From positions 2,214 through 66,213 of the forward strand of contig JACOSC010000025.1 in NCBI GenBank assembly GCA_016179055.1: DNA of 64,000 nucleotides, given 5' to 3'. Origin of the DNA: Acidobacteriota bacterium. Its GTDB lineage: Bacteria; Acidobacteriota; UBA6911; JACOSC01. The notes under the pieces were generated by a model. It did not search any database. It was not told the DNA's origin and worked only from the letters and a program-made list of their open reading frames with translations. Positions 8,469 to 60,017 of this stretch are shown piece after piece (position 1 is the stretch's first letter; every line of letters begins with the position of its first letter). A program made the translations under genes and the position numbers.

Positions 8469-8683
8469 CACGATAGGTAGTAAGATGTGGCCGGGAAGCA
8501 CAGGTCATTATCGTAACGCGAAGGAGCGGTCTCGCTCCCTGGCGTTTCCCGGAGCGGAGTATTGCTTTATGTTTGGCATGGCTAAGCCAATAAACCATGA
8601 CAATACCACGATACAAGTCAGCGAGGTCGAGTTGAAATTGGGTAACCAGGGCTCAGCCGCTGATTCTTGGGAGGGACTTCCTC

Positions 8684-40207: not shown

Positions 40208-40903
40208 TTATTGTTGCCCTGGACGCAGACGTTGTATAAGCTCTTCCGCCATAGGAACTAGAAATGTCCTTAGCTCTTCCAGGCCGAGCGGCTTAATCAT
40301 GCGCGGCAATTTGCGCAATTTTTGTACTCTGTGTAAGTTGGTCGCAAAGACAAGAGTACCGTCTTCGCCGTCGAACACCGCGTCCTTTTCACGCGCCCGA
40401 CCGATCAGGTAGTCCAGTGTATAGCGCGACTCTTTAAGAATGAAAAAGAGGTCACAGTAGTCCTTCAGGTCTGGTGGTTCTCTGCCATAGATCGCGCAGA
40501 TTTTGTTTACGGCTATATCCTCGAAAGAGTCCATGACAATTCGTTCGTGTGTTTGGGGCTCATCCATCTGTGCGGCCACGTCTTTAATAAACTCAAGCTT
40601 GAGCTGATTTTCTATCTGACCCTCCGGGTAGACAAAAAATCTTCCAAAGTCGGCGTCCGTCTCGGGCTGTTCATCGATAGTCAGTCCTACAGAGGCCAAA
40701 ATCTCCTGGACTTTTCTGAAGTCTTTATCCAGCGGGTCCGGCTTCCGGGTAAAAAAGTCCAAGTCATCCGAATAGCGATGTTGCAGGTAGAACTCAGACA
40801 ACGCGGTGCCGCCCGAAAGGAAATATCCTTCATCGCCGAATCCACGATCAAACAGGGCCATCAGCACTTTGCTTTGCAGATCGGTAAGAACTTTAAACGG
40901 CAT
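40208..40903 (-). CDS. AbiEii/AbiGii-family nucleotidyltransferase
   Basis: FLSGGTAL..YLQHRYSDDLDFF; NKICAI..R..KDYCDL. Confidence 0.88.
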   Translation of the reverse strand: MPFKVLTDLQSKVLMALFDRGFGDEGYFLSGGTALSEFYLQHRYSDDLDFFTRKPDPLDKDFRKVQEILASVGLTIDEQPETDADFGRFFVYPEGQIENQLKLEFIKDVAAQMDEPQTHERIVMDSFEDIAVNKICAIYGREPPDLKDYCDLFFILKESRYTLDYLIGRAREKDAVFDGEDGTLVFATNLHRVQKLRKLPRMIKPLGLEELRTFLVPMAEELIQRLRPGQQ

Positions 40904-43900
40904 GTCGCCAGACCTCAAGCGCCGCTTCCAGCATCTTGCGCTTTTTTTCCGGAAGATCCACTTGCGGCAACGCTTCTTCAATATCTTCGACGGTCAGCCA
41001 TCGCTTTGCATCTTTCCATGCGGCATATTTCAAAATCCGACCAATAGCCCAAATCCGCTGGTCGGAATTCTTGTCCTGAATGTACCGGCGCAGATCGTTT
41101 ACGTCTTCATCATAGTCCCATACGATCTGACGGGAGACTTCTCCTTCTAGGCGATTCATCACTTCACGCAGCCAGTCACGCGCGCGCGGTGGCGTGGCGG
41201 GGTCCTGCAATACACGCTCAATCTCACGCTTGCGCCCTTCGTAAAACCGCGACATAGGCCCTTCAATGATCGTTTCCTCTTGCTCTATGCCTGCAGTCAG
41301 CCGGCGGCGCAATATTTCGTCATTGGGGTACATCTCAACCAGCTTGAACGCCAGGGGCCAGAATCCGGGTTTGGCGCCGGTCAAGCCGTTAGCGACGGCG
41401 CGTGCAGACTCTTCGCCCTTCCTGGCAAAATCGAGCAGCAGGTTTCCGTCACTTTCTTGGTCAAGCAGACCTTTCAGATCAAAGAAAAGGGAGGTATCCG
41501 TTTGAGCAACGTTCAGAACCAACTCAATAAGACGTCCTCTGTTATTACGGTAAAGGATTTCCCAGAATTTATGGGTGTCATAGGGGTCTAGAGGGTTCCA
41601 CTGCTTCTCCGAAATCTCGGACTGTTGGATAAGCTTTTCGAGAAACTTAAATCCGCGCTCCGTATCATCTTGCGCCAGACCGGCGGCCAATTGATCAAAG
41701 TGCCGACCGCTGGTTGATGACGCAACCGGTAGTTCGTGTTCCAGGCAACACCAGGCAAACTCGGCCAAGCTGCCTTTCAACGCATGACCACCTTGTACCC
41801 AAAAAGCTAACTGGCGAACGGCAACCGCGGCATATTCAAAATACTCGCCGGCAATTACCTTTAGAAGCTGCTCGAGCTGATCTGCCATATCGGCGCGAAA
41901 TTCAAGGGTGTCTGCAACGTATTTCGGAGTAACCTGTTTATTCTGAATCAGAGTCTTAACACGTGTTACAGTCGTCGGACCTACGCCAAGCCAAGCGGTG
42001 GCTTGCACAATAGCCGCTCCAAAGGGAGCACCCGAATCGGTTAATTCGTCCAGACGCGCCTCTGCCGCTTCTCGGTCCCGCTGCGCCCAACCTTGCCAGT
42101 AGGCGGCAAAGGCGCGCACGCTCTCGGGCTCGGGTTGTGCGCCAAATTCCTCTATGCGGTTTTGATAGCTCAACTCTTTATCCGCGCTTCCAAGAAAGAA
42201 GAAAAAAGTGCTGGATTTCTGCGCGGATGGAGATACTAGCCATGCCACTAAATCAGCCGTTAGAAGGCTGGGTTCCTTAACCACATCACAGGCTAGCGCT
42301 TTGAGCTCGTGCGCGAAACGCGGATGGTCATCAGCCAAGATACCGCCACTCATATCATTTCCTGCCCAGCGTTTCAATCGTATGGCGAAGCCTGCTTGCC
42401 CCAGACTGTCTTCTAACTGTTGCAAGCCGGTAATACATTGGCGAAACCTATTCTGCAGATCGGATGGTAGCGTTACTGCTCCTTGTTCAAGTTGTTTAGA
42501 AAGATGCTCTCGCATTAAGCGAAGCGCCCTAAGAAGTGACGCTATATCAAGGCCGGCCTTGTCGGAACGAGCCCATTCCACGAGTTTTTTAAACAGTTCC
42601 AATGCCTCCTGATCCTGGCCAGCGCGAATACCTAATTGTGCAGTTAACCACGGCAATTTATCAAGTGCCGCTTTCGCAACCTCATCACTCTGGTTCGCGA
42701 GGCACATCAGAATATCCACCAGATTACAAGCATAGTCGTAAAAGTCATTGTACGTAAAGTCCGGCTTCCAGTCTAAGGGCTCTGAACCGGTACTCTGGCG
42801 AGCGCGGAACCACTTGTCAACCCAAGCGGCGGCCACCGCTTTAACAACAACTAGCTTTCCTTCCTTTGAAGCCTTGTCCGAGATGAATTCGTTAAGCAAC
42901 TCGATCCGCTCACCAAGAGGAAGCGGCATCTGGGGATGGGACGGATGAAAACATTCGATCAGCACTCCGGTTGCATTATTAGCATAGGTTTCATTCTCAG
43001 CCTCTGCCAACAGCCATAACAGGCGGACAGATCTCCGACTCGTACTTGCGCGAAAGATCAACTGCTCAAGCGTCCTTACGAGTTCACGGCGTTCGTTATC
43101 TGCGATCCCAAGTCGAGTTTCCCTGTTGCTGTTTAGTAAACCGGATTCGAGCAAGCGTACTGTGTAATCCGGTACAGTACCTGCAACCAGCGTCAATAGT
43201 TTTGCATTTTTAAGGGCCGCCTGAAAATTCTCTAGTGGGCCGCTGTGTGTAGAAAATTCCTTCCAAAACCGTGCTACCTCATCTCCAGTTACGCCGCTAA
43301 GCCTTTTTAACAAACGAATACGTCCTGGCTCGTCCAGCCTTCCAAATAAGGCAAGCATCACTTGTTGCCGTCCTTGCAGAAGTTTTGAAACCAGAGAATT
43401 GGCGAGCATGGGAATGGTTATCGCGACAAAGGATCCTCCGCGTTTCGCCAATCCCGCCTTTTCGAGTTCTGGCAATTTTAAAAGCACATTATGCCGATCC
43501 CATCCTTCCCCAAACAATTCGCAAATGACGTTAAGTTCATTTTCAAAGGCTCCGGAAATCCCCACATGCGTCAGAAGCGAGAACAACTGAGCACCGTGGA
43601 GCGCATCGGGACCGAGTTCTTTTTTGATCCGATCCTCGAATTCCTGCCCTACTTGCTCGGCGAAGTCCTCTGACGTGTCTCGCAATTTGTTTCCAACACT
43701 AGCAGCCACCAGGAGCACTCCCGGAACTCCACCGGCATTACGGATAATCCAATCCTCAATGGAAAAATCCAAAGGCCGGCCGGCAGCTCTCAGAAGCTTT
43801 CGGGCATTTTCTTCCGAGAGGGGCTGAAGATGTACAGACTGTACCCGTTCATCGCGCCCGTAAGACGGCGCGGGGGCGTTGGCTGAGGTGGGCAACGTTA

Positions 43901-44825
43901 TGATTAGTTTTAAGGTCGGTAACGTCAGCGCCTCACTCACCAATAAATCAATCGATTCCGAATCCGGGTCCTCAACGATGCATAGGATCTCGCCCTTATC
44001 CGAAACGAGCTGTCGGTAATCGTTCAGAGCCATGGAGCGCGGGTCAAGCGCCTGGACGACATAGTGGGGTCGGTGTCGAGTGGCTTCTAGAGCAAGACGG
44101 CTCTTTCCAACATCGTGCGGCCCAGTCAGAACTACCACGCGTACTCGCGGATCGTCAACCAACAATTTAAGACGATTAAGCTCGCCCTCCCGACCTGTGA
44201 GTTCGACATCTGCCCCATTATGCTTTTGACTTTGGTGTGCTTGGTAAGCCTCTTGCCAGGTCTTGAAAGATTCGCGAGTAAAGTAGGCGGCGCGTAGATG
44301 TGGATTGTCATTTAGAAGCACGGCTAATTCCGCTGCGCCCACGATTTCCACATGAACCATGGATGAATTCGCGTATCCATCCAAAATGGCCTTTTTTATC
44401 GGAGGTTTGCCATCATGATTTAGATCTGCATTGACGAAGAGAACGTATCGGTCCGGGTGCCGTCCGTTTCTTTCAGTCAGATCCTTCACAGCCCCTTTGA
44501 GCGACGATTTTAAATTAGAAATGACTGCTCGACGTCCATCGGCGATCAGGTCACGCTTCTTGTATTGAAACACATTCCAACCGGGACCAAGAATCGGCGT
44601 TGGCAGCGCATGACCATCATCGGGAAGCACGATGTCCCACTCGGCGTCAATGCCTTTATCCTTCGCATTGACACGCGCAGTAAACGAAGGTAGCTTTGGG
44701 CAAGCCCGTCCCGATGCGGCCCAGGCCAGGGCATCGCACAGCGACGCAAATCGATCCGGGGGCCACTCGCTGGTCCACTGTTCCAGGTGGCGTCCAGTAA
44801 TCGCTTGTCCAATCAATAAAGCCAT
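40893..44825 (-). CDS. Large nuclease-STAND NTPase protein with C-terminal antitoxin-like domain
   Basis: DKGIDA..FQYK (Mrr/PD-(D/E)xK-like); TGREGEL, GPHDVGKS (Walker A), CIVED (Walker B), GGVPG; long helical region; WDYD..IWAIGRILKY..ALEVW tail. Confidence 0.75.
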   Translation of the reverse strand: MALLIGQAITGRHLEQWTSEWPPDRFASLCDALAWAASGRACPKLPSFTARVNAKDKGIDAEWDIVLPDDGHALPTPILGPGWNVFQYKKRDLIADGRRAVISNLKSSLKGAVKDLTERNGRHPDRYVLFVNADLNHDGKPPIKKAILDGYANSSMVHVEIVGAAELAVLLNDNPHLRAAYFTRESFKTWQEAYQAHQSQKHNGADVELTGREGELNRLKLLVDDPRVRVVVLTGPHDVGKSRLALEATRHRPHYVVQALDPRSMALNDYRQLVSDKGEILCIVEDPDSESIDLLVSEALTLPTLKLIITLPTSANAPAPSYGRDERVQSVHLQPLSEENARKLLRAAGRPLDFSIEDWIIRNAGGVPGVLLVAASVGNKLRDTSEDFAEQVGQEFEDRIKKELGPDALHGAQLFSLLTHVGISGAFENELNVICELFGEGWDRHNVLLKLPELEKAGLAKRGGSFVAITIPMLANSLVSKLLQGRQQVMLALFGRLDEPGRIRLLKRLSGVTGDEVARFWKEFSTHSGPLENFQAALKNAKLLTLVAGTVPDYTVRLLESGLLNSNRETRLGIADNERRELVRTLEQLIFRASTSRRSVRLLWLLAEAENETYANNATGVLIECFHPSHPQMPLPLGERIELLNEFISDKASKEGKLVVVKAVAAAWVDKWFRARQSTGSEPLDWKPDFTYNDFYDYACNLVDILMCLANQSDEVAKAALDKLPWLTAQLGIRAGQDQEALELFKKLVEWARSDKAGLDIASLLRALRLMREHLSKQLEQGAVTLPSDLQNRFRQCITGLQQLEDSLGQAGFAIRLKRWAGNDMSGGILADDHPRFAHELKALACDVVKEPSLLTADLVAWLVSPSAQKSSTFFFFLGSADKELSYQNRIEEFGAQPEPESVRAFAAYWQGWAQRDREAAEARLDELTDSGAPFGAAIVQATAWLGVGPTTVTRVKTLIQNKQVTPKYVADTLEFRADMADQLEQLLKVIAGEYFEYAAVAVRQLAFWVQGGHALKGSLAEFAWCCLEHELPVASSTSGRHFDQLAAGLAQDDTERGFKFLEKLIQQSEISEKQWNPLDPYDTHKFWEILYRNNRGRLIELVLNVAQTDTSLFFDLKGLLDQESDGNLLLDFARKGEESARAVANGLTGAKPGFWPLAFKLVEMYPNDEILRRRLTAGIEQEETIIEGPMSRFYEGRKREIERVLQDPATPPRARDWLREVMNRLEGEVSRQIVWDYDEDVNDLRRYIQDKNSDQRIWAIGRILKYAAWKDAKRWLTVEDIEEALPQVDLPEKKRKMLEAALEVWRHAV

Positions 44826-45355: not shown

Positions 45356-46225
45356 ATGCTGATACTATCTCGATCGCTTCTACGCAGGGTCGCTTGGGCC
45401 GCCCTTAGTTTTATTATTCTGGGCTATGCGGCGCCGGCCGCAGAAGAATCTGCCGAAAAGTCGCTCGAGTGGAGCGGTTCCGTGGGTGTGTTCTCCAATT
45501 ATATCGCGCGCGGCTTATCGCAATCCTGGGGAAAACCGGTGTTACAGGCCGAGGTAGACGCGGCCCACAAAAGCGGATTTATCTTTGGCGCCTTTGCCTC
45601 ATCCCTTAGCCGGAACCTCTATCCGGGCGGCCATACTGAAATCGACGCCTGGGTGGGGTATGAGTACCCGTTGTCGGAGGAAATGGCCGTCAGTGTCGAG
45701 GCCTTCTATTATGCTTTCCCGAAAGCCAATATCAGCAAGGCCACTTGCGGGGTAGCCATCCCCTGTCCGAGCCGGCCGCATAGCTTTAACACGGCTCAGG
45801 TACGGGTCGGGACCACGTGGCACGGTGTCACTCTCCGCCTGGATTATTCTCTTACCGATTATTTCGCTGATTCTCGGCCAACCGGCTTTGCCGGGAGCAC
45901 GCGTGGGACTATGTACTGGGAGCTTAATTTCAAACAAGCGCTTCCACGGACGCAAAGTTGGACGCTTATGTCGCATCTTGGTGCTACGCGATTTCCAGTA
46001 AAATACGCGATAGCCGGTACGGGGATTAGTCAGAATCCTAATTACTGGGATTGGCATGCGGGAGTGGCGAAGGAATTTAAGGGTAAGCTGATGGGATGGC
46101 GCGCAAGTCTTCTCGGCGCCGGGGCCCTCGGTCGTTCGTTCGATAGTACTCCCTCGCTGATTAGCGTACGTTCAAAGGATCTTGGAAAACCCGTATTGGT
46201 CCTGGGTATCGAAAGGGCGTTTTGA
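45356..46225 (+). CDS. TorF-family putative outer-membrane porin
   Basis: Signal peptide; SNYIARGLSQSWGKPVLQ, EIDAWVGY, YWDW; terminal Phe. Confidence 0.75.
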   Translation: MLILSRSLLRRVAWAALSFIILGYAAPAAEESAEKSLEWSGSVGVFSNYIARGLSQSWGKPVLQAEVDAAHKSGFIFGAFASSLSRNLYPGGHTEIDAWVGYEYPLSEEMAVSVEAFYYAFPKANISKATCGVAIPCPSRPHSFNTAQVRVGTTWHGVTLRLDYSLTDYFADSRPTGFAGSTRGTMYWELNFKQALPRTQSWTLMSHLGATRFPVKYAIAGTGISQNPNYWDWHAGVAKEFKGKLMGWRASLLGAGALGRSFDSTPSLISVRSKDLGKPVLVLGIERAF

Positions 46226-46342
46226 AAAAGTCTGGCGGTTCCAAAGTAAGGTTGATATCACCTGAATTTTGCACGACAAGGAGGTTTCTCTAACAAATGA
46301 TCCATTTTTGTCCGGCTCTGCTTGTTCGCGCGGATCCGTGCA

Positions 46343-46400
46343 AAAAAATTTTTGCACGGACGATCATCACCACGGAGGGTAACTTAGCGATGACTGTGCG
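46343..46400. repeat. Second copy of the 58-bp dispersed repeat
   Basis: Reverse complement of 19593-19650. Confidence 0.85.
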
Positions 46401-46446
46401 CAGGAGCGGCCTGTTTATCGCAAGAATGCATGTGTGAGTTCGAACA

Positions 46447-46572
46447 AGCCCCGTAGGGGCGGCCTGTGTAAGGTTGATTTCGTCGACGAACGCGTCCGGA
46501 CAGGTCGCTCCTACGGAGCTTTAGGACCTACCATAGGAATCGCTACTATAAGCAGGCCGCCCCTACGGGGCT
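46447..46572. repeat. REP-like palindrome
   Basis: AGCCCCGTAGGGGCGGCCTG ... CAGGCCGCCCCTACGGGGCT, with a third unit at ~46501-46520. Confidence 0.75.
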
Positions 46573-47425
46573 GAGACGCATTGCCTGAGTAGTTACGATA
46601 TTAATCTATATTGCCTCCCCCACGCACCTCAGAACCAACACGTTTATATTCTCTACGGCGGATGCGGCTAGATAAATTTCTAAATTACATGTCCGGATGA
46701 AAAATTTATATTGACTTTTGCGCTCTCATAATTTATAAATATAAACATAACTGACCAATGGTTGGGCGTAGTTAGTCCTTTCTGTTTTTTTCAAATCAAA
46801 CACTCAGCAGGCAACGATAATGTGTTTGTTACGGTATACCCTTTAGATCAACACCACATGTCAGTTGTACCGGTTTAACAAATGCCGATGTAGTGACCAG
46901 ATCTGTGTAAACTTAATTTTTTATACTGGCAATCTGACCACCGCCCAGGAGGCGTCGGGAAGGAACGCACCCGTAGTCTTCATTTTTCTTGACGCTCCTC
47001 TGGTGCTACGCCAGTCTCAAGGCTGTCTGGACCGTAGTCACCAGTTAAGGTTTCCCGCTTGCCACCGCTGCGGCGGTGTCACTGAGTTTTACTTTTAACA
47101 ACAGGCTCCGGTAATGGTGCAACGCGACGCACCCGTTTGGGCCTCGGTCCGAACTGCGGTCATGTTGTCCCTTATATGGAGTGGCGACTGTTGTAATTTC
47201 ACCACGAGCCTGGCTCTACTGAACAGGGTTTAGCGCGACAACTGGCAGAAAAAACAAACGCTTCGAGTCCGCTACGTCGAATCCGTGCCATGGAGCGGCT
47301 CGGATTTTCTTCGTATCAGCGATGAGATCACGGCTGTTGTCTATGCGCCGTTCGATCTCGAGCACATTCCACGCAATCCCATGGGATTAGCCGCGCCGCG
47401 GCGCCGCGTGCAGTAGGAGGAACGA

Positions 47426-48865
47426 ATGATGATACAAGGCAGGACAGAAGGTTATGACTTAGAGACCGTGCCTAACTTGAAGCCCCCGGCGGGCCCCGAG
47501 GCGCTCGAGCACATGAACCTGCTGCAGGGCGAGTTCTGGCGGAAGGTTCCCGCCTACCGAGAGATCGACGAGGCTACGTTTCTCGACCACCTGTGGCAAT
47601 ACCGGCACTCGGTGAAAACGCCAAAGGAACTGACCGATACCGTACAGGATCTCGTATCGGCGTCGTTCCTAGAGGACCTGCAGGCCGGCTTCTATCGCGC
47701 GCCGATGAATGTACGCGTCTCGCCATACGTGATGGCGCTCATTGACTGGACCAACCCTTACGACGATCCGATTCGCACTCAGTTTATTCCGCTGGCCTCG
47801 CGGCTGCTGCCCGATCACCCCAAGTTGACACTCGATTCGCTCCATGAGCAGGAGGACTCCCCGGTACCCGGCATGACCCACCGCTACGCCGACAAGGCCC
47901 TGTTTCTTCCCACCAGCGTATGCCCGGTGTACTGCCGGTTTTGCACGCGCTCGTACGCCATCGGCGGTGACACCGACGTCGTTGAAAAGGCGGAATTGGC
48001 CACCGATCCCAAGCGCTGGCAGCAAGCCTTTGCCTACATCGCCTCCCATCCCGAATTGCAAGACATCGTCATCTCCGGCGGCGACACTTATCAGTTGCCG
48101 GCCAAAAGCCTGAAGAAAATCGGCGACGCCCTGCTCGACATTCCCAACGTACGGCGCATGCGCTTTGCCTCCAAAGGTGTGGCGATTCTGCCGAGCAAGA
48201 TCCTCACCGACCACGCCTGGGTAGACGCACTCTGCTCGGTCGTTCAGCGTGGCCGTTCGATGGGAAAGGACGTCGTCCTTCACACGCACTTCAACAGCCC
48301 GAACGAGATCACGTGGATAACGGAGAAAGCGATGCGTCGGCTGTTCGAGCGCGGGGTGACCGTGCGCAACCAGTCAGTACTGATACGCGGCGTCAATGAC
48401 GATAAGGAAACGATGCGGCTGCTCGTGCGGCGTCTCGGCTATCTCAACGCGCATCCCTACTATGTCTACTTGCATGACATGGTCAAGGGCGTGGAAGACT
48501 TGCGCACTACTGTGCAGACCGCCATCGACATTGAAAAGTTCGTCCGCGGCTGCACGGCCGGTTATAACACGCCGACGTTCGTCTGCGACGCGCCCGGCGG
48601 CGGCGGTAAGCGCGACGTACATTCCTACGACTATTACGATCGCGAGAACGGCATCGCCGTTTACAGCGCACCCGGGGTAAAGCCCAACCAGTGGTTCCTG
48701 TACTTCGATCCGTTAACGCAACTGGAACCGCAGGCGCGGCGCCGCTGGACGGACCCGGCGAACCATCGAGCGATGATCGAGGCCGCACTGGCCCAGGCCA
48801 AGCGTTGTGACGCCTTTGACCTGAGGCCGGTCTCCTTTGCAAGCGCGAACACAGAAATCAGGTAG
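47426..48865 (+). CDS. KamA-family radical SAM/PLP 2,3-aminomutase
   Basis: HRYADK, CPVYCRFCTR, ISGGD, NQSVL, YYVYLHD, FVCDAPGGGGK; AGGAGG RBS. Confidence 0.9.
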   Translation: MMIQGRTEGYDLETVPNLKPPAGPEALEHMNLLQGEFWRKVPAYREIDEATFLDHLWQYRHSVKTPKELTDTVQDLVSASFLEDLQAGFYRAPMNVRVSPYVMALIDWTNPYDDPIRTQFIPLASRLLPDHPKLTLDSLHEQEDSPVPGMTHRYADKALFLPTSVCPVYCRFCTRSYAIGGDTDVVEKAELATDPKRWQQAFAYIASHPELQDIVISGGDTYQLPAKSLKKIGDALLDIPNVRRMRFASKGVAILPSKILTDHAWVDALCSVVQRGRSMGKDVVLHTHFNSPNEITWITEKAMRRLFERGVTVRNQSVLIRGVNDDKETMRLLVRRLGYLNAHPYYVYLHDMVKGVEDLRTTVQTAIDIEKFVRGCTAGYNTPTFVCDAPGGGGKRDVHSYDYYDRENGIAVYSAPGVKPNQWFLYFDPLTQLEPQARRRWTDPANHRAMIEAALAQAKRCDAFDLRPVSFASANTEIR

Positions 48866-48870
48866 GAGCT

Positions 48871-51800
48871 ATGAAAGAAACACAGCCAAGTAATGAACAG
48901 ATAAACCCTAAAATGACTGCAGAAGTTGAAAGGACCGCCTGTGACGAATCGGCAGGGTGTCTCCACGAGCTTTTCGAAGCTTGGGTCGACCTACGGCCGG
49001 ACGCCCCTGCGATCCTCAGCGATGGTCTGTGCTTATCTTACAAAGAGCTTGAAGACCGGGCCAACCGCTTGGCACGGTGTATACGCACCTACGGGGTCGG
49101 GCCCGGCGATCTGGTGGCGATTTATTTCGAGCGCTCGGCGGCGCCGATCGTCGCCATACTGGCTTGCCTCAAGGCGGAAGTCGCTTACGTGCCCATAGAT
49201 CCGATTTACCCGGCGGACCGCATCCGCCATATTTTGCTTGAAGCGGAAGTGAGCCTCGTCCTCACCGAGCAGGCGCTTGCGGCCCGCGCGCAAAGCTTTT
49301 CCTCCAGCCGGTTGCTCGTCACTGACGCGCCCGGCGACGAGATCAGCGGCCAATCGGCGGCGCGCCTTTCTCGCCAGGACAGCGGACTCACGCCGCAAGA
49401 TCTTTGTTACGTCATTTATACGTCCGGCACCACGGGTCGCCCAAAGGGCGTGATGACCGAGCACCGCAACGCCTGGAAATTCGTCTTAGCGTTCAACGAA
49501 GTGTGCAGCACGACGCAGGAAGATCGTATTTACCAAGGTTTTTCGTTGAGCTTCGACGGATCGGTAGAAGAGATCTGGATGGCGTTTTCCAACGGCGCGC
49601 CCCTGGTGGTCGGCACTCCTCAGACCCCGCGATTCGGCAACGATATGGCGCGGTTCCTCAGCCGGCACGGCGTAACGTATTTTTCAACCGTTCCAACCAT
49701 GCTCTCCACTATGACGGAGGACATCCCCTCGCTAAGGCAACTCGTGGTCAGCGGTGAAGTCTGTCCGCCTGAGCTGGTGGCCCGCTGGGCCCGACCCGGC
49801 CGGCGGGTTTTGAACGCCTATGGACCCACCGAAGCCACGGTCAATACCACGGTCGCCGAGTGCATGCCGGGCCGGCCCATCACGATAGGCCGGCCACTGC
49901 CCGGTTATGACGTATACATTCTGGATGACGATATGCAGCCCCTGCCCCCGGGTGAGAAGGGCGAACTCTTCGTCGGCGGAGACACTCTGGCGCGGGGCTA
50001 CCTCAAACAGCCCGACCTGACCGCCGAGCGCTTCGTCACCTCTTCCTATGTCGGCAACGGTGAACCGACGCGGCTCTACCGGACCGGTGATTCGGCCTTG
50101 ATCAACGTCCAGGGCGATATCGAGTTTTTTGGCCGCCTCGATGGTCAGGTCAAGATACGCGGCTACCGCGTCGAGTTGGCGGAAATCGAAACTGTGCTGA
50201 TCGAATGCCCCGGCATTCGTGCCGCCACGGTCAGCCTGTTGGAGCACGACGGATTACGGGAGCTGGCCGCCTTCGTCCTGGTTGACAACGCCGGCGCGCC
50301 GATGGATCGCAATACCGTGCTGGAATTGCTGAGGGCGCGGCTTCCGGATTACATGGTCCCCGCCTACCTCGATATCCTTCACGAGTTTCCCACCCTTGCC
50401 AGCGGCAAAGTAGACCGCAAGCGACTGCCCGCGCCGGTTTCGCCGCTGGTGCGCACTGCACGCCATATCATTCCGCCGAAGACGGATCTCGAGCTCAAGA
50501 TCGTGGCGGTATGGCAACGGTTATTCGGCGTCACCGAAATTTCCATTGAAGACGACTTTTTCCTGGACCTCGGCGGCTACTCGCTGCTTGCCGCACAGAT
50601 GGTCACGATGCTGCGCAGCGAGGCGGGGTTAACCGTCGCCGTGCGCGACGCGTATCGTTTTCCCACGGTAAAAAAACTGGCGGAGCAAATCGCCACGACG
50701 GAGACTCGATCGCCCGCAGAGCCTACCACGGCCGATAAGGCCAAGCTGTCGAGCCGAGCTGCGTTTGAAAGCCTTTCGCCCTGGGCCCGCCGGGCGTGCG
50801 TGGCACTGCAAGCGCATTCGCTTTACCTTTTATACGGACTGGGGACGGCTCCCTTGTGCGCCTTCCTGTTGTTGGCCCTCAATGTCAAGGAAGGCGCCCT
50901 GGCGCTTAAGCCGGCAGTCGCCGTCGGCATCGCCCTTGGGTTTGCCACTTGGCCGACGCTGCTGTGCGTGAGCCTCGCAGCCAAATGGCTGATCATCGGG
51001 CGTTACAAGCCGGGACGGTATCCGGTTTGGGGGCTTTATTACTGGCGTTGGTGGCTGGTGATGCATATGCAAGGCATGAGCGGCGCCGGCGCGCTTACCG
51101 GGACTCCCGTGCTGCGCGTGTACTACCGTTTGATGGGCGCAAAGGTCGGTCGAGATGTCGCGCTCGATACTGCGCAATGCTTTATTTGGGATCTCGTAAC
51201 CATTGGGGATGAAACGAGCATCGGCGCGGATACCCAACTTTTAGGCTGTCGGGTTGTGGACGGCATGCTGGTCATGGGCCGTATCGACATCGGGAGCCGG
51301 TGTTTCATCGGCATACATTCGGCGCTGGGTCTGAACGTACGCATGGAAGACGATACACGGCTCGACGATCAATCCTTGCTTCCCGACGGGGCCGTCATGG
51401 AGGCCGGTGAATCGCGTCGCGGCTCGCCGGCGTTGCCCGCGCCGGTGGCCGTGCCCGAGCCGAATCCTCACTGCGCGCTCCAAAGTCGTCGCTCGGCCCT
51501 GCTGTATGGGATGGCGCATTTTATCCTGATCGAACTGCTGGGCTGGCTGCTTCTGCTCCCCGCGGCGCCGCTTGCCGTCGGAATCAACTTTGCCTATGTG
51601 ACCGGCGGCTGGCCGTGGGGCCTGCTCGCGCTGCTCGCTTCGGTACCGGCGGCGGAGGTGCTCTATTGCTTCTTCATCGCCGGCCTCAAAGCTTTGGCCT
51701 TGCGCCGCCCGGCGCCAGGCGTGTATCCACTGGCCAGCGTTTTCTATCTGCGCAAGTGGTTTGTGGACGAGTTGATTAAATTGAGCCGTGTGGTTCTGCT

Positions 51801-52899
51801 GCCCCTGTACACGACGCTCTACCTGCCGCCCTGGCTGCGCCTGCTCGGCGCCCGCATCGGCGCGCGCGCCGAGCTGTCCACAGTATGGTATTTTTCTCCC
51901 GAAACTATGGACGTCGGAGAAGAGAGCTTTTTTGCGGACGGCTCGATAATCGGAGGAAAGAGAATCTTCCGCGGCCAGTGCGAGATCGGTGTAAACCACG
52001 TCGGCCGCCGCAGCTTCGTGGGCAACAGCGCCATACTGCCCGTCGGACGCGGACTGGGGGACAAGTGTTTGCTCGGCGTACTTTCGGCGCCGCCCTGCAC
52101 GGCAGAGGCTGCGGTCCCCGACGGGACCGAATGGTTAGGCTCGCCGGCCTTCGCTCTGCCCCATCGGCGAAAAGTAGAAGGTTTCTCAGATGCCGTGACC
52201 TATCGGCCCACGCCGAAACTCTATTTCCAGCGGGCCGTTATCGACGGTATGCGAATTCTAATCCCCGGCTATATCGCCACGGTCGTCGGCGGCGCCTTTT
52301 TCGCGGCGCTTTACTTCTGCCGGCTGTGGTTCGGAACCGTCGGGCTGTTTGCGCTGGCGCCAGTGTTGGGAATCATCACGTCGATCGTGCTTTGTTGTAT
52401 CGTGGCGGGGTTAAAAAAACTGGTGATGGGAACTTTTCAGCCGGTCATAAAACCCTTGTGGTCGCCCTATGTCTGGTTTAACGAAATGATAAACGGCATC
52501 TACGAATCAGTCATGGCCCCGGCGATGGCGACCTATTTGGGAACGCCTTTTGTGGTGCCCCTACTGCGTTTAATCGGATGCAAAATCGGCCGTCGCACCT
52601 TCATTGACTCGACACTGTTCTCGGAATTCGATCTCGTTGAAGTCGGCGATTATGCCGCGCTCAATCACGGATCGGTGGTGCAGACGCACCTTTTTGAAGA
52701 TCGCATTATGAAGTCTTCGTATGCGAAAATCGGCGACGAGTGCTCGCTGGGCAACATGGCCATTATTCTTTATGATGCGGAGATGCAGCAAGGAGCCTCG
52801 CTGGGCCCGCTCTCGCTCTTGATGAAAGGGGAGACGCTCGGCCCCTATACCCGCTGGCACGGAATTCCTACGGTGTCGGCTCGGTCTTCGGAGACCTAA
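48871..52899 (+). CDS. Pls/PosA-type single-module membrane NRPS (homopoly-amino-acid synthetase)
   Basis: A domain (YTSGTTGRPKG, YGPTE, YRTGD), T domain (LGGYSL) and three TM-flanked repeats (RLMGAKVG, RLLGARIG, RLIGCKIG; QTHLFEDRIMK). Confidence 0.92.
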   Translation: MKETQPSNEQINPKMTAEVERTACDESAGCLHELFEAWVDLRPDAPAILSDGLCLSYKELEDRANRLARCIRTYGVGPGDLVAIYFERSAAPIVAILACLKAEVAYVPIDPIYPADRIRHILLEAEVSLVLTEQALAARAQSFSSSRLLVTDAPGDEISGQSAARLSRQDSGLTPQDLCYVIYTSGTTGRPKGVMTEHRNAWKFVLAFNEVCSTTQEDRIYQGFSLSFDGSVEEIWMAFSNGAPLVVGTPQTPRFGNDMARFLSRHGVTYFSTVPTMLSTMTEDIPSLRQLVVSGEVCPPELVARWARPGRRVLNAYGPTEATVNTTVAECMPGRPITIGRPLPGYDVYILDDDMQPLPPGEKGELFVGGDTLARGYLKQPDLTAERFVTSSYVGNGEPTRLYRTGDSALINVQGDIEFFGRLDGQVKIRGYRVELAEIETVLIECPGIRAATVSLLEHDGLRELAAFVLVDNAGAPMDRNTVLELLRARLPDYMVPAYLDILHEFPTLASGKVDRKRLPAPVSPLVRTARHIIPPKTDLELKIVAVWQRLFGVTEISIEDDFFLDLGGYSLLAAQMVTMLRSEAGLTVAVRDAYRFPTVKKLAEQIATTETRSPAEPTTADKAKLSSRAAFESLSPWARRACVALQAHSLYLLYGLGTAPLCAFLLLALNVKEGALALKPAVAVGIALGFATWPTLLCVSLAAKWLIIGRYKPGRYPVWGLYYWRWWLVMHMQGMSGAGALTGTPVLRVYYRLMGAKVGRDVALDTAQCFIWDLVTIGDETSIGADTQLLGCRVVDGMLVMGRIDIGSRCFIGIHSALGLNVRMEDDTRLDDQSLLPDGAVMEAGESRRGSPALPAPVAVPEPNPHCALQSRRSALLYGMAHFILIELLGWLLLLPAAPLAVGINFAYVTGGWPWGLLALLASVPAAEVLYCFFIAGLKALALRRPAPGVYPLASVFYLRKWFVDELIKLSRVVLLPLYTTLYLPPWLRLLGARIGARAELSTVWYFSPETMDVGEESFFADGSIIGGKRIFRGQCEIGVNHVGRRSFVGNSAILPVGRGLGDKCLLGVLSAPPCTAEAAVPDGTEWLGSPAFALPHRRKVEGFSDAVTYRPTPKLYFQRAVIDGMRILIPGYIATVVGGAFFAALYFCRLWFGTVGLFALAPVLGIITSIVLCCIVAGLKKLVMGTFQPVIKPLWSPYVWFNEMINGIYESVMAPAMATYLGTPFVVPLLRLIGCKIGRRTFIDSTLFSEFDLVEVGDYAALNHGSVVQTHLFEDRIMKSSYAKIGDECSLGNMAIILYDAEMQQGASLGPLSLLMKGETLGPYTRWHGIPTVSARSSET

Positions 52900-52968
52900 C
52901 GGCCACGAAGAACCCTAGTCATAGATTGATCGGCACTTTCGATGTCCCTTTCGCGTCAACCTTGATAG

Positions 52969-55900
52969 TTACGCGGATGGGCGAGCCTCGGCGTACACCG
53001 TTGTCGCTACTTTAACCGTCGGCGAGGCCGTCGCGGATTTGGGCTGCACCTTCCAAAACATCGGCGCAAAGTTATCCCATTGCGACAACACTTCGGCGGC
53101 CCGGGCGCTCTGGGTTTGCTTGTGATGACGCTCGATCATACCGCGCATCCGGTCAATCTCTTCGAAATCAGTGAGGCGCAATACTTCCACGGTCTGTTTA
53201 TTGCAATGAGACTGAAATCGCTCCGTCTCATCCAAAACGTAGACGGTACCCCCCGTCATCCCGGCCGCAAAGTTCTTGCCGGTTTCGCCTAGCACCAGAA
53301 CCGTTCCGCCGGTCATATATTCGCAGCCATGGTCCCCGACACCCTCGACTATGGCCATGGCGCCGCTGTTGCGGACGGCGAAGCGCTCTCCCGCGCGACC
53401 GGCAGCATAGAGTTCGCCGCCGGTGGCGCCGTAGAGTACCGTATTGCCAAGCAAGACATTTTCATGGGAGACGAAAGTCGCCTCGGCCGGAGGTCGTATG
53501 GCGATGACGCCGCCGGTCATGCTCTTACCCACATAGTCATTGGCCTCGCCGATCAGAACCAGCGTCATGCCGGGAACGCAGAAGGCGCCGAAGCTCTGGC
53601 CGGCGCTGCCGCGGAAATAACACTCGATGGTGTTTTCCGGCAAACCGCGGTTGCCCCAGAGCTGTGCAATCTCGCCGGCGAGCCGAGCCCCAATCGCGCG
53701 ATCCGTATTGCGAATTAAGTACTCAAGAAAGATCGGCCGCTTTTCGATAACTGTCGAGCGCGAGTCCATGACGAGCCGCTCATTTAGAGGATTTTCGGCG
53801 ACGCGCGGGGCGGCGTCCGCCAAGCGCCGCGGCGCGTCGTGATCAACCGTGGCCAAGACTTGGCTAAGATTGATAGGCGCATAATCACCGGACTTTGGTT
53901 CCAGCAGATCCGCACGGCCGACGATCTCCTCCATTGTACGAAATCCCAACGTCGCTAGAATCTCGCGTGTTTCCCGGGCCACGTATCGCAGGAAATTGAT
54001 GAGGTGCTCCGGCTTGCCATCAAAGCGGCCGCGCAACTCCTCACGTTGCGTGGCTATGCCTTTCGGGCACGTATTCATATGGCACTGACGGGCCATGACG
54101 CAGCCCAGCGCTACTACCGCCGCCGCGCCGAAGCCGAACTCCTCGGCGCCCAGCAGCGCGGCGACCACGACATCACGGCCGGTCTTGAGTCCGCCATCCA
54201 CTTGCAGGCGCACGCGGCTGCGCAAGCCGTTCCATCGAAGAATTTGCTGCGCCTCCGCCAATCCCAATTCCCAGGGGACGCCGACGTTTTTGATCGATCC
54301 CAACGGCGACGCTCCCGTCCCGCCATCATAGCCGCTGATCAAAATGGTATCGGCGTGCGCTTTGGCGACACCGGCGGCAACCGTACCCACTCCGGCTTCC
54401 GCAACCAGCTTAACGCTGATGCGCGCCCGTGGATTGACCTGGCGCAAATCGTAAATGAGTTGCGCTAAATCTTCGATGCTATAAATATCGTGATGCGGCG
54501 GCGGAGAAATTAAACTGACGCCGGGCACTGAGTGTCGTATGGCGGCAATCTCGGCGGATACTTTATGACCCGGCAGTTGCCCGCCCTCGCCCGGCTTGGA
54601 CCCTTGCGCGATCTTGATCTGCAATTCTTGGGCGGCCATGAGATACTCGGTCGTGACGCCAAACCGCCCCGACGCCACTTGCTTGACCGCGCTATTGAGC
54701 CGGTCTTCTCCCGATGCGGAGCGAAAACGGCGGGGGTCCTCACCGCCTTCGCCGCTGTTGCTTCGCGCTCCGACGCGATTGGCGCCGGCGGCCAGCGTTT
54801 CATGGGCTTCTCGACTTAAGGCTCCGTGCGACATCGCCGATGTGACAAAGCGACGGACAATTTCTTCAACGGGTTCCACTTCGGCTAGCGGTATCGGCGT
54901 TCCGGTGCGAAACTGCAAGAGATCGCGCAACGCCGTCGGTGGTCGTTTTTCCACAAGCTCCCGATAAAGCCGGTATTGTCCCTCATAATCGGATTGGCGA
55001 ACGGCTTGGTGTAGAGCCTTGAATACCTGCGGATTGAAAGCGTGATACTCGCCATCGGCGCGGAAGCGATAGACGCCGGCATCTTCCAGCCGCGTAGAAC
55101 CGGACTCAAAGGCCGACGCATGGCGGAGGAGAAGTTCCTGTGCCAAATCTTTAAATCCAATTCCGCCGATGCGAGAAGGAGTGCCGGGAAAACACCGATC
55201 GATGATTTCTGCGGAGAGTCCGAGGGCTTCAAAAAGCTGGGCGCCACGATAGCTACTCAACGTAGAAATGCCCATCTTCGACATGATTTTCAAGAGGCCA
55301 TTCTCGAGCGCCAGTTTATAATTATGAAGGATGGTGCGAGCCGTAAGGCATTCAACGTCACCGTTAGAAACCATGGCTGCCATCGTAGCAAAGGCCAGGT
55401 AGGGATAAAGGGCGTTAGCGCCGTAGCCCAGCAAAGCCGCGCAGTGATGTTCCTCAAAAGCGCATCCGGTCTCGACGACCAGGCTGGCTTGGCCGCGCAA
55501 GCCCGAACGAATCATGTGATGGTGGACGGCCCCCACGGCCATAAGCATAGGGATGGGCGCCTGGTCGGGACTGACGGGACGATCCGTAAGGATCAATATT
55601 GAATTCCCTTCTCGTACGGCGGCAGCCGCCGTTTCGCAGAGCGCGCTGATCGCCACGGCAAGGGCTTCGCTCCCTTCCGAGGCATCAAAAAGACACGGCA
55701 ACGTCTTGGAGCGGAAAGTGGGACCCGTCAGCGACTGCAGCCATGCTACCTCCGTCCGAGTGAGAATCGGCGTCTTCAATTTGATACCAGTGGCGTTTTC
55801 TTCGCAGTCCACCAGCCATTGTCCCCGGTTGCCCAGGAATGTCGTGAGCGACATGACCAGCTTTTCACGTAAGGGATCGATGGGAGGGTTGGTCACTTGA

Positions 55901-57474
55901 GCGAAGAGCTGCTTGAAATAGGTAAATAGCGATCGCGTTTTCTGAGCGAGCACAGAAAGCGGCGTGTCATCGCCCATGGAGCCGATGGCCTCTTTGGCCT
56001 CGAGGCCCATGGGCTTCATCATACGTTCCAGGTCTTCTGCGGTGTATCCGAAAGTTTTTTGCTGCCTGAGCAACTGCTCCGGCAGAAACGACTCGGCTTC
56101 GATGTCGTATAGACTCACTTCCACCGGCACCATCCTGCGACGTACCCAATCGCCGTAAGGATTTTCCCCAGCTAGTTGCGCTTTAATAGCGGAATTATCC
56201 AGAATGATACCCTTCTCCATATTCACGGCAATCATTTGACCGGGACCTAGCCGCCCCTTGCTTACCACGCGTGCTGGATCGATGGGGAAGACGCCGACCT
56301 CCGAAGCCAGACTCAGCAGGCCATCGTCGGTAACTTGATACCGAGCCGGCCGCAGGCCATTGCGATCAAGCGCCGCGCCCACTACGGCGCCGTCACTGAA
56401 AATCACCGCCGCCGGTCCATCCCATGGCTCCATAAGGGGAGCATGATAATCGTAAAAGGCTTTGAGATCGGCGCTCAGGCCGGGAACCGTTTCATAGGCC
56501 TCCGGAAACATCATGGCCGCACTGCGCAGTATTGTGCGGTTGGAATGGGTCAGGAATTCTAAAACGTTGTCGACGCCGGCCGAGTCGCTGCGCCCCGGCT
56601 GCACAATAGGACGTAGTTGATCAGACGCCGCCGCATCCCAAAGGGTCGCCGGTAGATGAGCTTCGCGCCCCGCCATCCAATGGCGGTTGCCTTTGATCGT
56701 ATTGATTTCGCCATTATGCGCCACCATGCGAAACGGATGAGCAAGCGACCAATTGGGAAACGTATTGGTGCTATAGCGTTGGTGGAAGAGAACCATGGCC
56801 GTCTCGAACAGCGGGTCCTGGAGGTCACGATAGAACTCCGGTAGATGCGCCGGCGTCATGAGGCCTTTATAAACGATAGTCTTATGTGAGAGTGATGGAA
56901 TGTAAAACCGCTCTATCGACGACGTTCTCGCTTCAATCGCTTTACGGGTCAGGTATAAGGCTCTTGCGAAGCCGGCGCCGGACATTCCTTCCGGGCGCGC
57001 CAGCAATACTTGCTCGATATACGGTCGCGTGGCGGCCCCTTTGGGGCCGAGGGCAGATAGCTCTACCGGCACCTCGCGATAACCAAGCAGTGATAGGTGG
57101 TGAATCCGCATAGCGTTCTCGATAGCCGTCCGACAAAACTGCTGCGCTTCCATATCGTCCGGTGGAAGAAAGAGCATGCCGACGGCTAGGCGGGAAGGAT
57201 CGATGGCTGCAATCCCTCGCGCAGCCAACGCGGCCGCGAGAATTTTATAAGGCAACTGTGTCAGCACGCCGGCGCCGTCTCCGGTCTGATCGTCGGCATC
57301 CACCGCGCCGCGATGAGCCAAACGATCTAAAGCATGTATCCCCATATCCAGAATCGTACGGCTGGAGTGGCCGTTAATACTGGCGACGAAACCGACGCCG
57401 CAGGCATCATGCTCAAAATCCGGCGAATATAATGGCGGATGAGCACGCTGAAGAGCATCAAACATAATACGCAA
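52969..57474 (-). CDS. gltB: Glutamate synthase large subunit
   Basis: EHDACGVGF, HQRYSTNT, KPGEGGQLPG, CVMARQCHMNTC, GDHGCEYMTGG. Confidence 0.96.
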   Translation of the reverse strand: MRIMFDALQRAHPPLYSPDFEHDACGVGFVASINGHSSRTILDMGIHALDRLAHRGAVDADDQTGDGAGVLTQLPYKILAAALAARGIAAIDPSRLAVGMLFLPPDDMEAQQFCRTAIENAMRIHHLSLLGYREVPVELSALGPKGAATRPYIEQVLLARPEGMSGAGFARALYLTRKAIEARTSSIERFYIPSLSHKTIVYKGLMTPAHLPEFYRDLQDPLFETAMVLFHQRYSTNTFPNWSLAHPFRMVAHNGEINTIKGNRHWMAGREAHLPATLWDAAASDQLRPIVQPGRSDSAGVDNVLEFLTHSNRTILRSAAMMFPEAYETVPGLSADLKAFYDYHAPLMEPWDGPAAVIFSDGAVVGAALDRNGLRPARYQVTDDGLLSLASEVGVFPIDPARVVSKGRLGPGQMIAVNMEKGIILDNSAIKAQLAGENPYGDWVRRRMVPVEVSLYDIEAESFLPEQLLRQQKTFGYTAEDLERMMKPMGLEAKEAIGSMGDDTPLSVLAQKTRSLFTYFKQLFAQVTNPPIDPLREKLVMSLTTFLGNRGQWLVDCEENATGIKLKTPILTRTEVAWLQSLTGPTFRSKTLPCLFDASEGSEALAVAISALCETAAAAVREGNSILILTDRPVSPDQAPIPMLMAVGAVHHHMIRSGLRGQASLVVETGCAFEEHHCAALLGYGANALYPYLAFATMAAMVSNGDVECLTARTILHNYKLALENGLLKIMSKMGISTLSSYRGAQLFEALGLSAEIIDRCFPGTPSRIGGIGFKDLAQELLLRHASAFESGSTRLEDAGVYRFRADGEYHAFNPQVFKALHQAVRQSDYEGQYRLYRELVEKRPPTALRDLLQFRTGTPIPLAEVEPVEEIVRRFVTSAMSHGALSREAHETLAAGANRVGARSNSGEGGEDPRRFRSASGEDRLNSAVKQVASGRFGVTTEYLMAAQELQIKIAQGSKPGEGGQLPGHKVSAEIAAIRHSVPGVSLISPPPHHDIYSIEDLAQLIYDLRQVNPRARISVKLVAEAGVGTVAAGVAKAHADTILISGYDGGTGASPLGSIKNVGVPWELGLAEAQQILRWNGLRSRVRLQVDGGLKTGRDVVVAALLGAEEFGFGAAAVVALGCVMARQCHMNTCPKGIATQREELRGRFDGKPEHLINFLRYVARETREILATLGFRTMEEIVGRADLLEPKSGDYAPINLSQVLATVDHDAPRRLADAAPRVAENPLNERLVMDSRSTVIEKRPIFLEYLIRNTDRAIGARLAGEIAQLWGNRGLPENTIECYFRGSAGQSFGAFCVPGMTLVLIGEANDYVGKSMTGGVIAIRPPAEATFVSHENVLLGNTVLYGATGGELYAAGRAGERFAVRNSGAMAIVEGVGDHGCEYMTGGTVLVLGETGKNFAAGMTGGTVYVLDETERFQSHCNKQTVEVLRLTDFEEIDRMRGMIERHHKQTQSARAAEVLSQWDNFAPMFWKVQPKSATASPTVKVATTVYAEARPSA

Positions 57475-58735: not shown

Positions 58736-58744
58736 TCTATTGGT

Positions 58745-58807
58745 GGCGATGGGGTCCGCCAGGGAGTGCCCGCTCCCAAACCGTCCCAGCTAGGACTGAT
58801 GGCTCCT
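58745..58807 (+). ncRNA. Fluoride (crcB) riboswitch
   Basis: GGCGATGGGGTCCGCC..AAACCGTCC..GGACTGATGGCTCCT fits the consensus P1, pseudoknot and P2. Confidence 0.85.
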
Positions 58808-58844
58808 AAATAATTAGTCACCTTCAAAGAGAAAGGAGCTATGA

Positions 58845-60017
58845 ATGGACCTCTACGTGGGACTGCTGCTGGCAGTCTTAACCTTTATAGCGAGTTTGCT
58901 CTCTATTAAGTTGGGACTTTCGGCAGCCATCATAGAAATCACGCTCGGCGTCATCGCGGGGAATTTTCTTGGTGTAACACAACTTGACTGGGTAAAATAC
59001 ATTGCCGGCTTCGGCGGAATCCTGCTGACTTTTCTAGCCGGTGCGGAAGTAGACGTGCAAGTTATGCGCGGAAAGGCCAAGGAAAGTATTCTTATCGGGA
59101 CACTCTCATTTGCTATACCGTTTCTTGCTACAATGCTACTCTGTCGTTATCTGCTGCATTGGGACTGGCCACCGGCGCAAATTGCGGGCCTGGCTCTGAG
59201 CACAACATCGTTGGCTGTGGTCTATGCCGTCCTTGTCGAGTCTGGCCTTACGCATACTGAAATCGGCAAGATTATCATGGCTAGTACTTTCGTGACGGAT
59301 TTTGGCACCGCCGCGGGGCTTTCCCTGCTTTTTATTACACCCAACACAAACACCCTCGGGTTCGGAGTTGTCTCTGTTGGAATCATTGCGCTGGCGCCTC
59401 TCGTCATGCCGCATTTTGTTCGCCGCTATGGCGCGCGTGTCATCGAGCCGGAGATTAAGCTCCTCTTTTTACTCCTGCTGGCGCTGATGTACTTTGCTCA
59501 TAAAGGCGCAAGCCATGCCATCTTACCGGCATTTGTGCTAGGTTTGGCGCTCTCGCGGTTATTCCATAGCAATCCGGAGCTCCAGCGCAAACTGCGTATC
59601 GTTGCCTTTGCTTTCATCACGCCAATTTTCTTTTTAAATGGGGGATTAAATATTTCGTTACCACTGCTCTGGGCAAATATCAGTCTCTTCCTAATTCTTT
59701 TATTTGTGAAACTCATTGCTAAGTTTGTCGGCGTCTACCCGATCTCAAAGTTCTTCCTTCCGCGTGAAGCTACCTATACAACGCTGTTGATGAGTACCGG
59801 CCTTACGATGGGTACCATCAGTTCGATGTTCGGCTATCAAGCCGGGATTATTAGTCAGGCGCAGTTTTCTGTATTAGTAGCGGTCGTGATTGCCAGCGCC
59901 ATTGTTCCGACGTTTTTGGCCCAACGTTTCTTTCATCCACATCATGCGCTCGAAGCTATAGGTGGCGAGGTTGACCCGGAACTCCTGGAGAGCAAGAGGT
60001 CAAATCCACGCCCATGA
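58845..60017 (+). CDS. Cation:proton antiporter (Na+/H+ exchanger family)
   Basis: About 12 TMs; LTFLAGAE, ALSTTSLAVV, FVTDFG; AAGGAG RBS. Confidence 0.88.
   Translation: MDLYVGLLLAVLTFIASLLSIKLGLSAAIIEITLGVIAGNFLGVTQLDWVKYIAGFGGILLTFLAGAEVDVQVMRGKAKESILIGTLSFAIPFLATMLLCRYLLHWDWPPAQIAGLALSTTSLAVVYAVLVESGLTHTEIGKIIMASTFVTDFGTAAGLSLLFITPNTNTLGFGVVSVGIIALAPLVMPHFVRRYGARVIEPEIKLLFLLLLALMYFAHKGASHAILPAFVLGLALSRLFHSNPELQRKLRIVAFAFITPIFFLNGGLNISLPLLWANISLFLILLFVKLIAKFVGVYPISKFFLPREATYTTLLMSTGLTMGTISSMFGYQAGIISQAQFSVLVAVVIASAIVPTFLAQRFFHPHHALEAIGGEVDPELLESKRSNPRP

Follow-up and report, generated by a model that had tools for sequence, protein, structure and literature searches.

A 64,000-nucleotide stretch of an uncultured Acidobacteriota genome (GenBank assembly GCA_016179055.1, contig JACOSC010000025.1, positions 2,214 to 66,213 of the forward strand), referred to here as the window, carries a two-gene cassette that probably directs the synthesis of an isopeptide homopolymer of β-lysine, of which ε-poly-L-β-lysine is the likeliest form. 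The cassette consists of a gene for a KamA-family 2,3-aminomutase (P0001) followed by a gene for a homopolymer synthetase of the Pls/PosA family (P0002). A product of this kind had been proposed in the original prediction, which was made from the letters of the window, and it is supported here by two lines of evidence: the specificity code of the synthetase's adenylation (A) domain, which is predicted to be of a published β-lysine type, and the pairing of aminomutase and synthetase genes in other genomes, which is specific to synthetases with that type of code.

The two open reading frames (ORFs) lie on the same strand exactly where they had been placed (Table 1). The stop codon of the aminomutase gene (TAG, 48863-48865) and the ATG of the synthetase gene (48871) are separated by an intergenic gap of 5 bp. 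Profile matches agree with the predicted arrangement of a KamA gene directly upstream of a complete synthetase. P0001 reaches 236.7 bits on TIGR00238, the KamA family model, and passes its cut-off of 199.2, while P0002 reaches 562.5 bits on TIGR02353, the Pls/PosA terminal domain (cut-off 423.1), with profile positions 2-694 of 695 matched by residues 646-1333. The predicted family memberships of both proteins are far beyond chance. The ribosome-binding site (RBS) of the synthetase gene had been described as overlapping the aminomutase stop codon, and this also holds, as the first G of GGAG in "TAGGAG" is the last base of that codon, but GGAG ends merely 2 nt ahead of the ATG. A database copy of the synthetase (P0003) has 1328 residues, 14 fewer than P0002, a length consistent with initiation at the second ATG (48913); no Shine-Dalgarno-like stretch was seen before this ATG. 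With either synthetase start, the two genes form one operon.

The domain organization of P0002 is that of a Pls-type enzyme. An A domain (residues ~35-520) is followed by a thiolation (T) domain (543-606) and by an alternation of transmembrane (TM) helices and soluble segments in the order TM1-2, C1, TM3-4, C2, TM5-6, C3. The hydrophobic pairs seen in the hydropathy profile span 650-709, 875-944 and 1127-1190; the soluble segments, likewise three, can be aligned with one another, in keeping with the threefold repeat of the original prediction. Pfam matches comprise PF00501 AMP-binding (296.5 bits), PF13193 (27.3 bits) and PF00550 PP-binding (42.9 bits), and the A domain aligns with that of Pls (7WEW) with an E-value of 4.2e-79. 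S571 in the GGYS motif of the T domain, H816 and H1273 are invariant across 30 aligned sequences. No condensation, thioesterase or epimerase domain is present among the five Pfam families reported for P0002 (E <=0.01).

The ten positions of the A-domain specificity code were read from the conserved A4, A5 and A10 motifs by column mapping, and the code of P0002 is DGESVSAVNK. In PMC10522769, DGESISVVNK is given as the code of the characterized ε-poly-β-lysine synthetase of Streptoalloteichus hindustanus and of a Methylomarinum homologue. The same source gives DMEHNGTVSK as the code of the ornithine enzyme PosA and DSECYGGVTK as that of a Bdellovibrionales enzyme that weakly activates arginine, and describes lysine-activating enzymes with Ala at code position 2. 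P0002 has Gly at this position and is identical to DGESISVVNK at 8 of 10 positions, with the two changes (I to V and V to A) being conservative. The mapping is trusted because it recovered three published codes letter for letter elsewhere, namely DGESISVVNK in 15 of 121 synthetases and DMEHNGTVSK and DSECYGGVTK in loci of the window's phylum. The 121 sequences, made up of P0002, the database record of the same protein and 119 matches of 53-84% identity, carry DGESVSVVNK in 96 cases, DGESISVVNK in 15, DGESVSAVNK in 5, near variants in 3 and a code of a different type in 2. DGESVSVVNK, the commonest code in the clade, differs from the published one by the I to V change alone and is found in actinomycete rows too. 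The predicted code of P0002 is of the published β-lysine type.

Conservation of the pairing in other genomes had been named as a point on which the original prediction could fail, and the pairing is conserved. One genome per species was surveyed, which yielded 63 loci in which KamA homologues were searched for, synthetase codes were read and the two were cross-tabulated. A KamA gene is present in 24 of 33 loci with a β-type code, in none of 22 with another code (DAES..GTV.K, DFE.. and DGEDIGTIVK) and in none of 8 in which the A domain lies off the contig and the code is unreadable. Where at least 3 kb was available on both flanks, the counts are 19 of 24 for β-code loci and 0 of 16 for the others. 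Among the KamA-bearing β-code loci, the aminomutase gene lies upstream on the same strand, as in the window, in 14, is divergent in 8 and lies downstream in 2. The pairing is thus both conserved and specific to the β-code type. Beside one proteobacterial β-code synthetase (L012, 3723-4911) the KamA matches fall in two separate frames or pieces, which suggests a frameshift or an assembly error.

A conserved third gene was not found when all ORFs of the 33 β-code loci and the window were clustered, with only Pls and KamA occurring in more than 7 loci. Genes for a phosphopantetheinyl transferase (PPTase), a PF03417 acyltransferase-like protein and an ATP-binding cassette (ABC) ATPase each occur in 6-7 of the β-code loci, and none of these families is found near the window's operon. 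The PF03417 gene (acyl-CoA:6-aminopenicillanic-acid acyltransferase-like, of the N-terminal nucleophile (Ntn) hydrolase type) is present in 7 of the 33 (L018, L023, L024, L025, L030, L032 and L037) and could encode a polymer-processing or self-protection enzyme.

Phylogenetic analysis against Pls-family enzymes, suggested as a check on the original prediction, places P0002 with the β-code synthetases. The FastTree phylogeny has 53 rows; 11 of the 63 loci were omitted for a frame shorter than 1200 residues or an unreadable code, as was L060, a longer multi-domain protein. The β-code synthetases form a single clade of 34 rows with a local support of 100, and P0002 lies inside it. This clade includes members from Actinomycetota, Pseudomonadota, Myxococcota, Bdellovibrionota, Planctomycetota and Verrucomicrobiota, with the actinomycete rows (Actinoplanes, Kineosphaera, Pilimelia and Propionibacteriaceae) nested within it. 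The row nearest to P0002 comes from a Bdellovibrionales genome (support 99, 58% identity).

The aminomutases show a matching pattern. In a quick IQ-TREE phylogeny of 35 rows, 21 of 25 Pls-linked KamAs, P0001 included, group with four unlinked ones in one clade with a Shimodaira-Hasegawa-like approximate likelihood ratio test (SH-aLRT) support of 100. The other four Pls-linked KamAs fall into a separate, canonical KamA group together with a second KamA from the window's genome, and a canonical-type KamA has taken over the role of synthetase partner at least once. P0001 is 33-35% identical to the KamAs beside actinomycete β-code synthetases (L022, L029 and L041), which belong to the same large clade. 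Because the genome also holds the second, more canonical KamA (481 bits on the AblA model, cut-off 525), P0001 is regarded as an extra copy, and it is predicted to be a dedicated one from the clade that travels with β-code synthetases. The second KamA gene (L009, G000 contig C231, 24-3706) lies between a D-Ala-D-Ala-ligase-like (Ddl-like) ATP-grasp gene and kdsB, a context that is not of the β-lysine acetyltransferase or elongation factor P (EF-P) type.

P0001 aligns with the solved lysine 2,3-aminomutase of Clostridium subterminale (2A5H) with an E-value of 1.4e-64. Its CPVYCRFC sequence matches the radical S-adenosylmethionine (SAM) CxxxCxxC cluster motif of 2A5H (C166/C170/C173), K395 corresponds to the pyridoxal 5'-phosphate (PLP) lysine K337, and D351 and D388 correspond to D293 ("YLHD") and D330 ("VCD"), which we take to bind the ε-ammonium group of lysine, a role for which a literature search brought up no open source. 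The original prediction was correct that both aspartates are retained. It also held that they favor a basic substrate over glutamate, and this part did not stand: of the 35 KamA-family rows aligned, 32 have a letter at both positions, and 31 of these keep both aspartates, canonical and seemingly housekeeping members among them. The aspartates were accordingly rejected as a discriminating sign, as nearly all KamA rows keep them, and are compatible with lysine, nothing more. P0001 is 63 residues longer than 2A5H, its match to the LAM_C domain model covers no more than the initial 27 positions of that model, and it has a single cysteine in its C-terminal 80 residues. The clostridial enzyme presumably has a C-terminal zinc site, and because of this lone cysteine the site seems to be missing in P0001.

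Taken together, these features allow a route to be proposed. KamA, with a [4Fe-4S] cluster, SAM and PLP, would shift the α-amino group of L-lysine to C3 and yield β-lysine, as expected from its family and conserved residues. The A domain would then adenylate β-lysine, as its code and the link with KamA suggest, and load it as a thioester onto the phosphopantetheine arm of the T domain, which would be attached by a PPTase encoded elsewhere in the genome. The membrane domain, with six TM helices and three β-helix-like repeats, may iterate chain growth by analogy with Pls and PosA. The ε-amino group of free β-lysine or of the growing chain would attack the thioester repeatedly and give a polycation, with no need for a template, a condensation domain or a thioesterase. 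The ε-polymerization step is proposed because of the analogy with Pls, PosA and the S. hindustanus product, the last reported second-hand in PMC10522769 and PMC9606270. An antimicrobial or antifungal role would be expected for the cassette, as for similar polycations.

The window comes from an uncultured groundwater bacterium in which the kdsB gene hints at a lipopolysaccharide (LPS)-type (Gram-negative) envelope, and two PPTase genes are present elsewhere in its genome. None of 40 class-level relatives yielded a Pls-family gene that passes the cut-off. Among 301 genomes sampled from the phylum there are 11 Pls-like matches, 7 of them above the cut-off (that of the window included), and the other ten are not of the β type: nine have readable codes that are not β codes, one is unreadable, and none of the ten has a KamA nearby. 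The exact PosA code DMEHNGTVSK occurs in one genome of the phylum (L095, G139) and the exact DSECYGGVTK code in four (L101-L104: G248, G269, G170 and G228). The G+C content at third codon positions (GC3) is 0.77 and 0.71 for the two cassette genes, compared with 0.63 +/- 0.06 for the long ORFs of the genome (98th and 95th percentile), and the cassette adjoins a type I restriction system, an AbiEii gene and a large AAA-type ORF. A horizontal origin is indicated, not proven, by the relatives without the gene, the high GC3 and the defense-rich neighborhood, and the cassette was probably acquired in this way.

Several points weigh against a β-lysine homopolymer as the product. The proposal is a prediction from sequence, for the window locus as for the other non-actinomycete members, and very little soluble protein was obtained for the Methylomarinum A domain (PMC10522769). 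The code of P0002 is not identical to the characterized one, with Ala at position 7 in just 5 of the 121 sequences, and it is the published code, together with rows from other actinomycetes, that places it beside the S. hindustanus enzyme, whose own sequence is not among the rows of the tree. The Fisher p of 1.9e-8 for the linkage overstates the case because the rows are related and not independent, and 9 of the 33 β-code loci have no KamA in the locus. Five of these have long flanks; a whole-genome search found a KamA of the same clade elsewhere in four of the five genomes, two of these KamAs (63% and 68% identity) belonging to the window's subclade and two to a related actinomycete-type subclade, and the remaining genome (G045) has a canonical-type KamA only. 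P0001 falls below all NCBIfam equivalog cut-offs (AblA, 248.6 bits against 525.4; Glu, 202.2 against 650; Arg, 196.9 against 600; EpmB, 164 against 369.3). The AblA model (TIGR03820) is also not reached by other Pls-linked KamAs (L024, 260.5 bits; L022, 152.5 bits). Because its score is below the AblA cut-off, P0001 is classed within the KamA family, with a predicted specificity for lysine, and not as an AblA equivalog; the stereochemistry assigned to the product is likewise a prediction.

Another polymer is one alternative. A new code in a Pls homologue can go with an unexpected substrate (PMC10522769), and a synthetase that used a different basic amino acid or joined β-lysine by another linkage (for example, EpmB-type (R)-β-lysine, a β-amino linkage or another β-diamino acid) would give an undescribed polymer and would fit the two differing code positions, an aminomutase clade that passes no equivalog cut-off and a substrate assignment made by comparison. 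However, both code changes are conservative, and DGESVSVVNK, a single I to V step from the published code, is shared with actinomycete rows. P0001 also keeps both aspartates that presumably contact lysine, and such a polymer is considered unlikely. A somewhat smaller chance is given to ordinary ε-poly-L-α-lysine or a mixed α/β polymer, with the aminomutase serving another purpose or supplying part of the monomer pool. Pls-family A domains can take more than one diamino acid, as PosA activates ornithine and, less well, lysine (PMC10522769), and the β-code loci lacking a neighboring KamA would be accounted for. This option is at odds with the Gly at code position 2, where lysine-activating enzymes have Ala (PMC10522769), with the tight gene coupling in the window and with the lack of KamA near any of the 18 DAES-code loci of the survey or the 3 of the phylum sample. 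The sole DAES-code enzyme nested in the β clade, from a Lacipirellulaceae genome (L043; synthetase 6001-9951, code DAESIGTVDK), has no KamA within 6 kb and looks like a specificity reversion plus aminomutase loss. Least probable of all, the cassette may be a silent or decaying passenger, acquired horizontally, that makes nothing in this organism. The variable, defense-rich stretch beside it, its high GC3 and the lack of a related gene in class-level relatives would agree with this, and the four public sequencing runs that bear the locus are all DNA from one groundwater study and may themselves be the source of the window, with no RNA run on record, which is evidence in neither direction. On the other side, neither the 479-codon nor the 1342-codon frame is interrupted, all catalytic and cofactor residues checked are kept, a Shine-Dalgarno-like site precedes each gene, and a full-length synthetase of 84% identity from another sample (P0004) suggests that the gene is being kept intact. 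A cassette for a β-lysine homopolymer remains the preferred reading.

Such a cassette has close parallels in known systems. The pairing is not new: in S. hindustanus NBRC 15115, an aminomutase gene beside a Pls homologue led to ε-poly-β-lysine (Yamanaka et al. 2022, ACS Chem Biol 17:171, via PMC10522769 and PMC9606270), and a proteobacterial enzyme with the same code as that of S. hindustanus has been noted before (PMC10522769). The two systems share a Pls-type synthetase with A, T and membrane domains beside a KamA-type aminomutase, the same code type and the same predicted product; they differ in the two code positions and in the host, which here is not an actinomycete, and the window system is known from its DNA, with a predicted product. 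The Pls of Streptomyces albulus (ε-poly-L-lysine) has the same domain order and six-TM, three-repeat polymerization domain, and iterative isopeptide synthesis is expected of both, but it activates L-α-lysine, has Ala at code position 2 (PMC10522769) and needs no aminomutase. PosA of Acinetobacter baumannii (δ-poly-L-ornithine) belongs to the same family, TIGR02353, and shows that enzymes of the Pls/PosA type work in Gram-negative bacteria, but it has the code DMEHNGTVSK and uses ornithine (PMC10522769). Streptothricin synthesis also makes ε-linked β-lysine oligomers from aminomutase-derived β-lysine, but there a stand-alone A domain (ORF19) makes the amide links, with streptothrisamine as the scaffold (PMC10522769 and PMC9606270); no streptothricin-type genes are found at the window locus.

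What is new lies in the distribution. The window adds a member in a deep-branching genome of Gram-negative type, the sole β-type case among the 301 phylum genomes sampled, and it belongs to a conserved two-gene cassette that is common outside actinomycetes, with its own KamA clade that no NCBIfam equivalog model captures. The view that such polymers belong mainly to actinomycetes stands for the characterized producers of β-lysine polymers, which are all actinomycetes in the open literature examined, but not for the β-code clade, which in public genomes is mostly non-actinomycete, and the window's case is less novel than first thought. No characterized non-actinomycete β-lysine polymer was found in the open literature; subscription papers and Supplementary Table 2 of PMC10522769 (homologue codes) may list more.

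Table 1. Features of the aminomutase-synthetase cassette and its upstream stretch (window positions).
Feature	Position	Strand	Basis or remark
AGGAGG, Shine-Dalgarno-like, before the KamA start	47409..47414	+	5-nt spacer plus 6 further bases to ATG 47426; read from sequence
KamA-family radical-SAM/PLP 2,3-aminomutase P0001, 479 aa	47426..48865	+	TIGR00238, 2A5H alignment, Pls-associated KamA clade
Purine-rich AGGTAGGAG, putative RBS of the synthetase gene, overlapping the KamA stop	48860..48868	+	Read from sequence
Pls/PosA-family homopolymer synthetase P0002, 1342 aa	48871..52899	+	TIGR02353, code, invariant residues, hydropathy and threefold repeat
Upstream stretch of 1.2 kb without an ORF of >=80 aa, GC 0.496	46226..47425		ORF listing, GC count

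The operon's promoter presumably lies in the upstream stretch (Table 1), which separates the operon from a Gcw_chp outer-membrane-type gene and contains a long hairpin (46444-46523) with a sub-threshold match on both strands. At Rfam gathering thresholds, the sole match in the whole window is a fluoride riboswitch elsewhere, and no lysine riboswitch was found; a permissive RNA-family scan of 46200-47450 gave three sub-threshold, chance-level matches. Promoter and terminator patterns in 46200-53100 are near shuffled-sequence counts (5 vs 2.8 and 11 vs 7.9), and nothing is drawn from them for this reason. The fluoride riboswitch (RF01734, 42.7 bits vs 34; 58736-58815, plus strand) lies directly upstream of a Na+/H+-exchanger-family gene (58845-60017, plus strand), and the two look like an ordinary fluoride-response unit.

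Downstream of the synthetase gene by 69 bp lies a convergent gene for the glutamate synthase large subunit (GltB, 52969-57474). The N-terminal 500 residues of this GltB reach no more than 55% identity in their best matches, whose names are mixed (Acidobacteria, Binatia, Verrucomicrobiae, Blastocatellia and Dehalococcoidia) and do not place the organism. A GltB gene a few kb or less from a β-code synthetase is seen in two unrelated genomes, those of the window and of a member of Pseudobdellovibrionaceae (L013, 13896-15995), which is probably a coincidence. On the other side of the operon, the type I restriction-modification set (31255-39730, plus strand) comprises HsdM, HsdS, an M78-peptidase ORF and HsdR, with the HsdR ORF bearing a C-terminal S24 LexA-like peptidase domain. 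It is followed on the minus strand (40208-44825) by an AbiEii-type nucleotidyltransferase ORF that overlaps the end of a 1310-aa ORF. The latter has a weak AAA_16 match and no other; it lies next to the restriction system and may be a defense gene.

Isopeptide polycations such as ε-polylysine are used as food preservatives and have been studied as antimicrobials and cell-penetrating carriers. The compact two-gene cassette lends itself readily to heterologous expression, and its variants to a comparison of chain length and activity. As a practical rule, the β-lysine type can be recognized by a code of the form DGES[VI]S[VA]VNK with a KamA close by, and the partner KamA clade, which falls under no equivalog model, could receive a name of its own in annotation. 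The cassette is spread across at least six phyla, and new chemistry is a possibility: there is a slim prospect that the product is a new polycation, of other stereochemistry, linkage or chain-length class, made by a mobile cassette. If so, polymers of this kind would be in wide use as a weapon among environmental Gram-negative bacteria and would no longer count as an actinomycete specialty.

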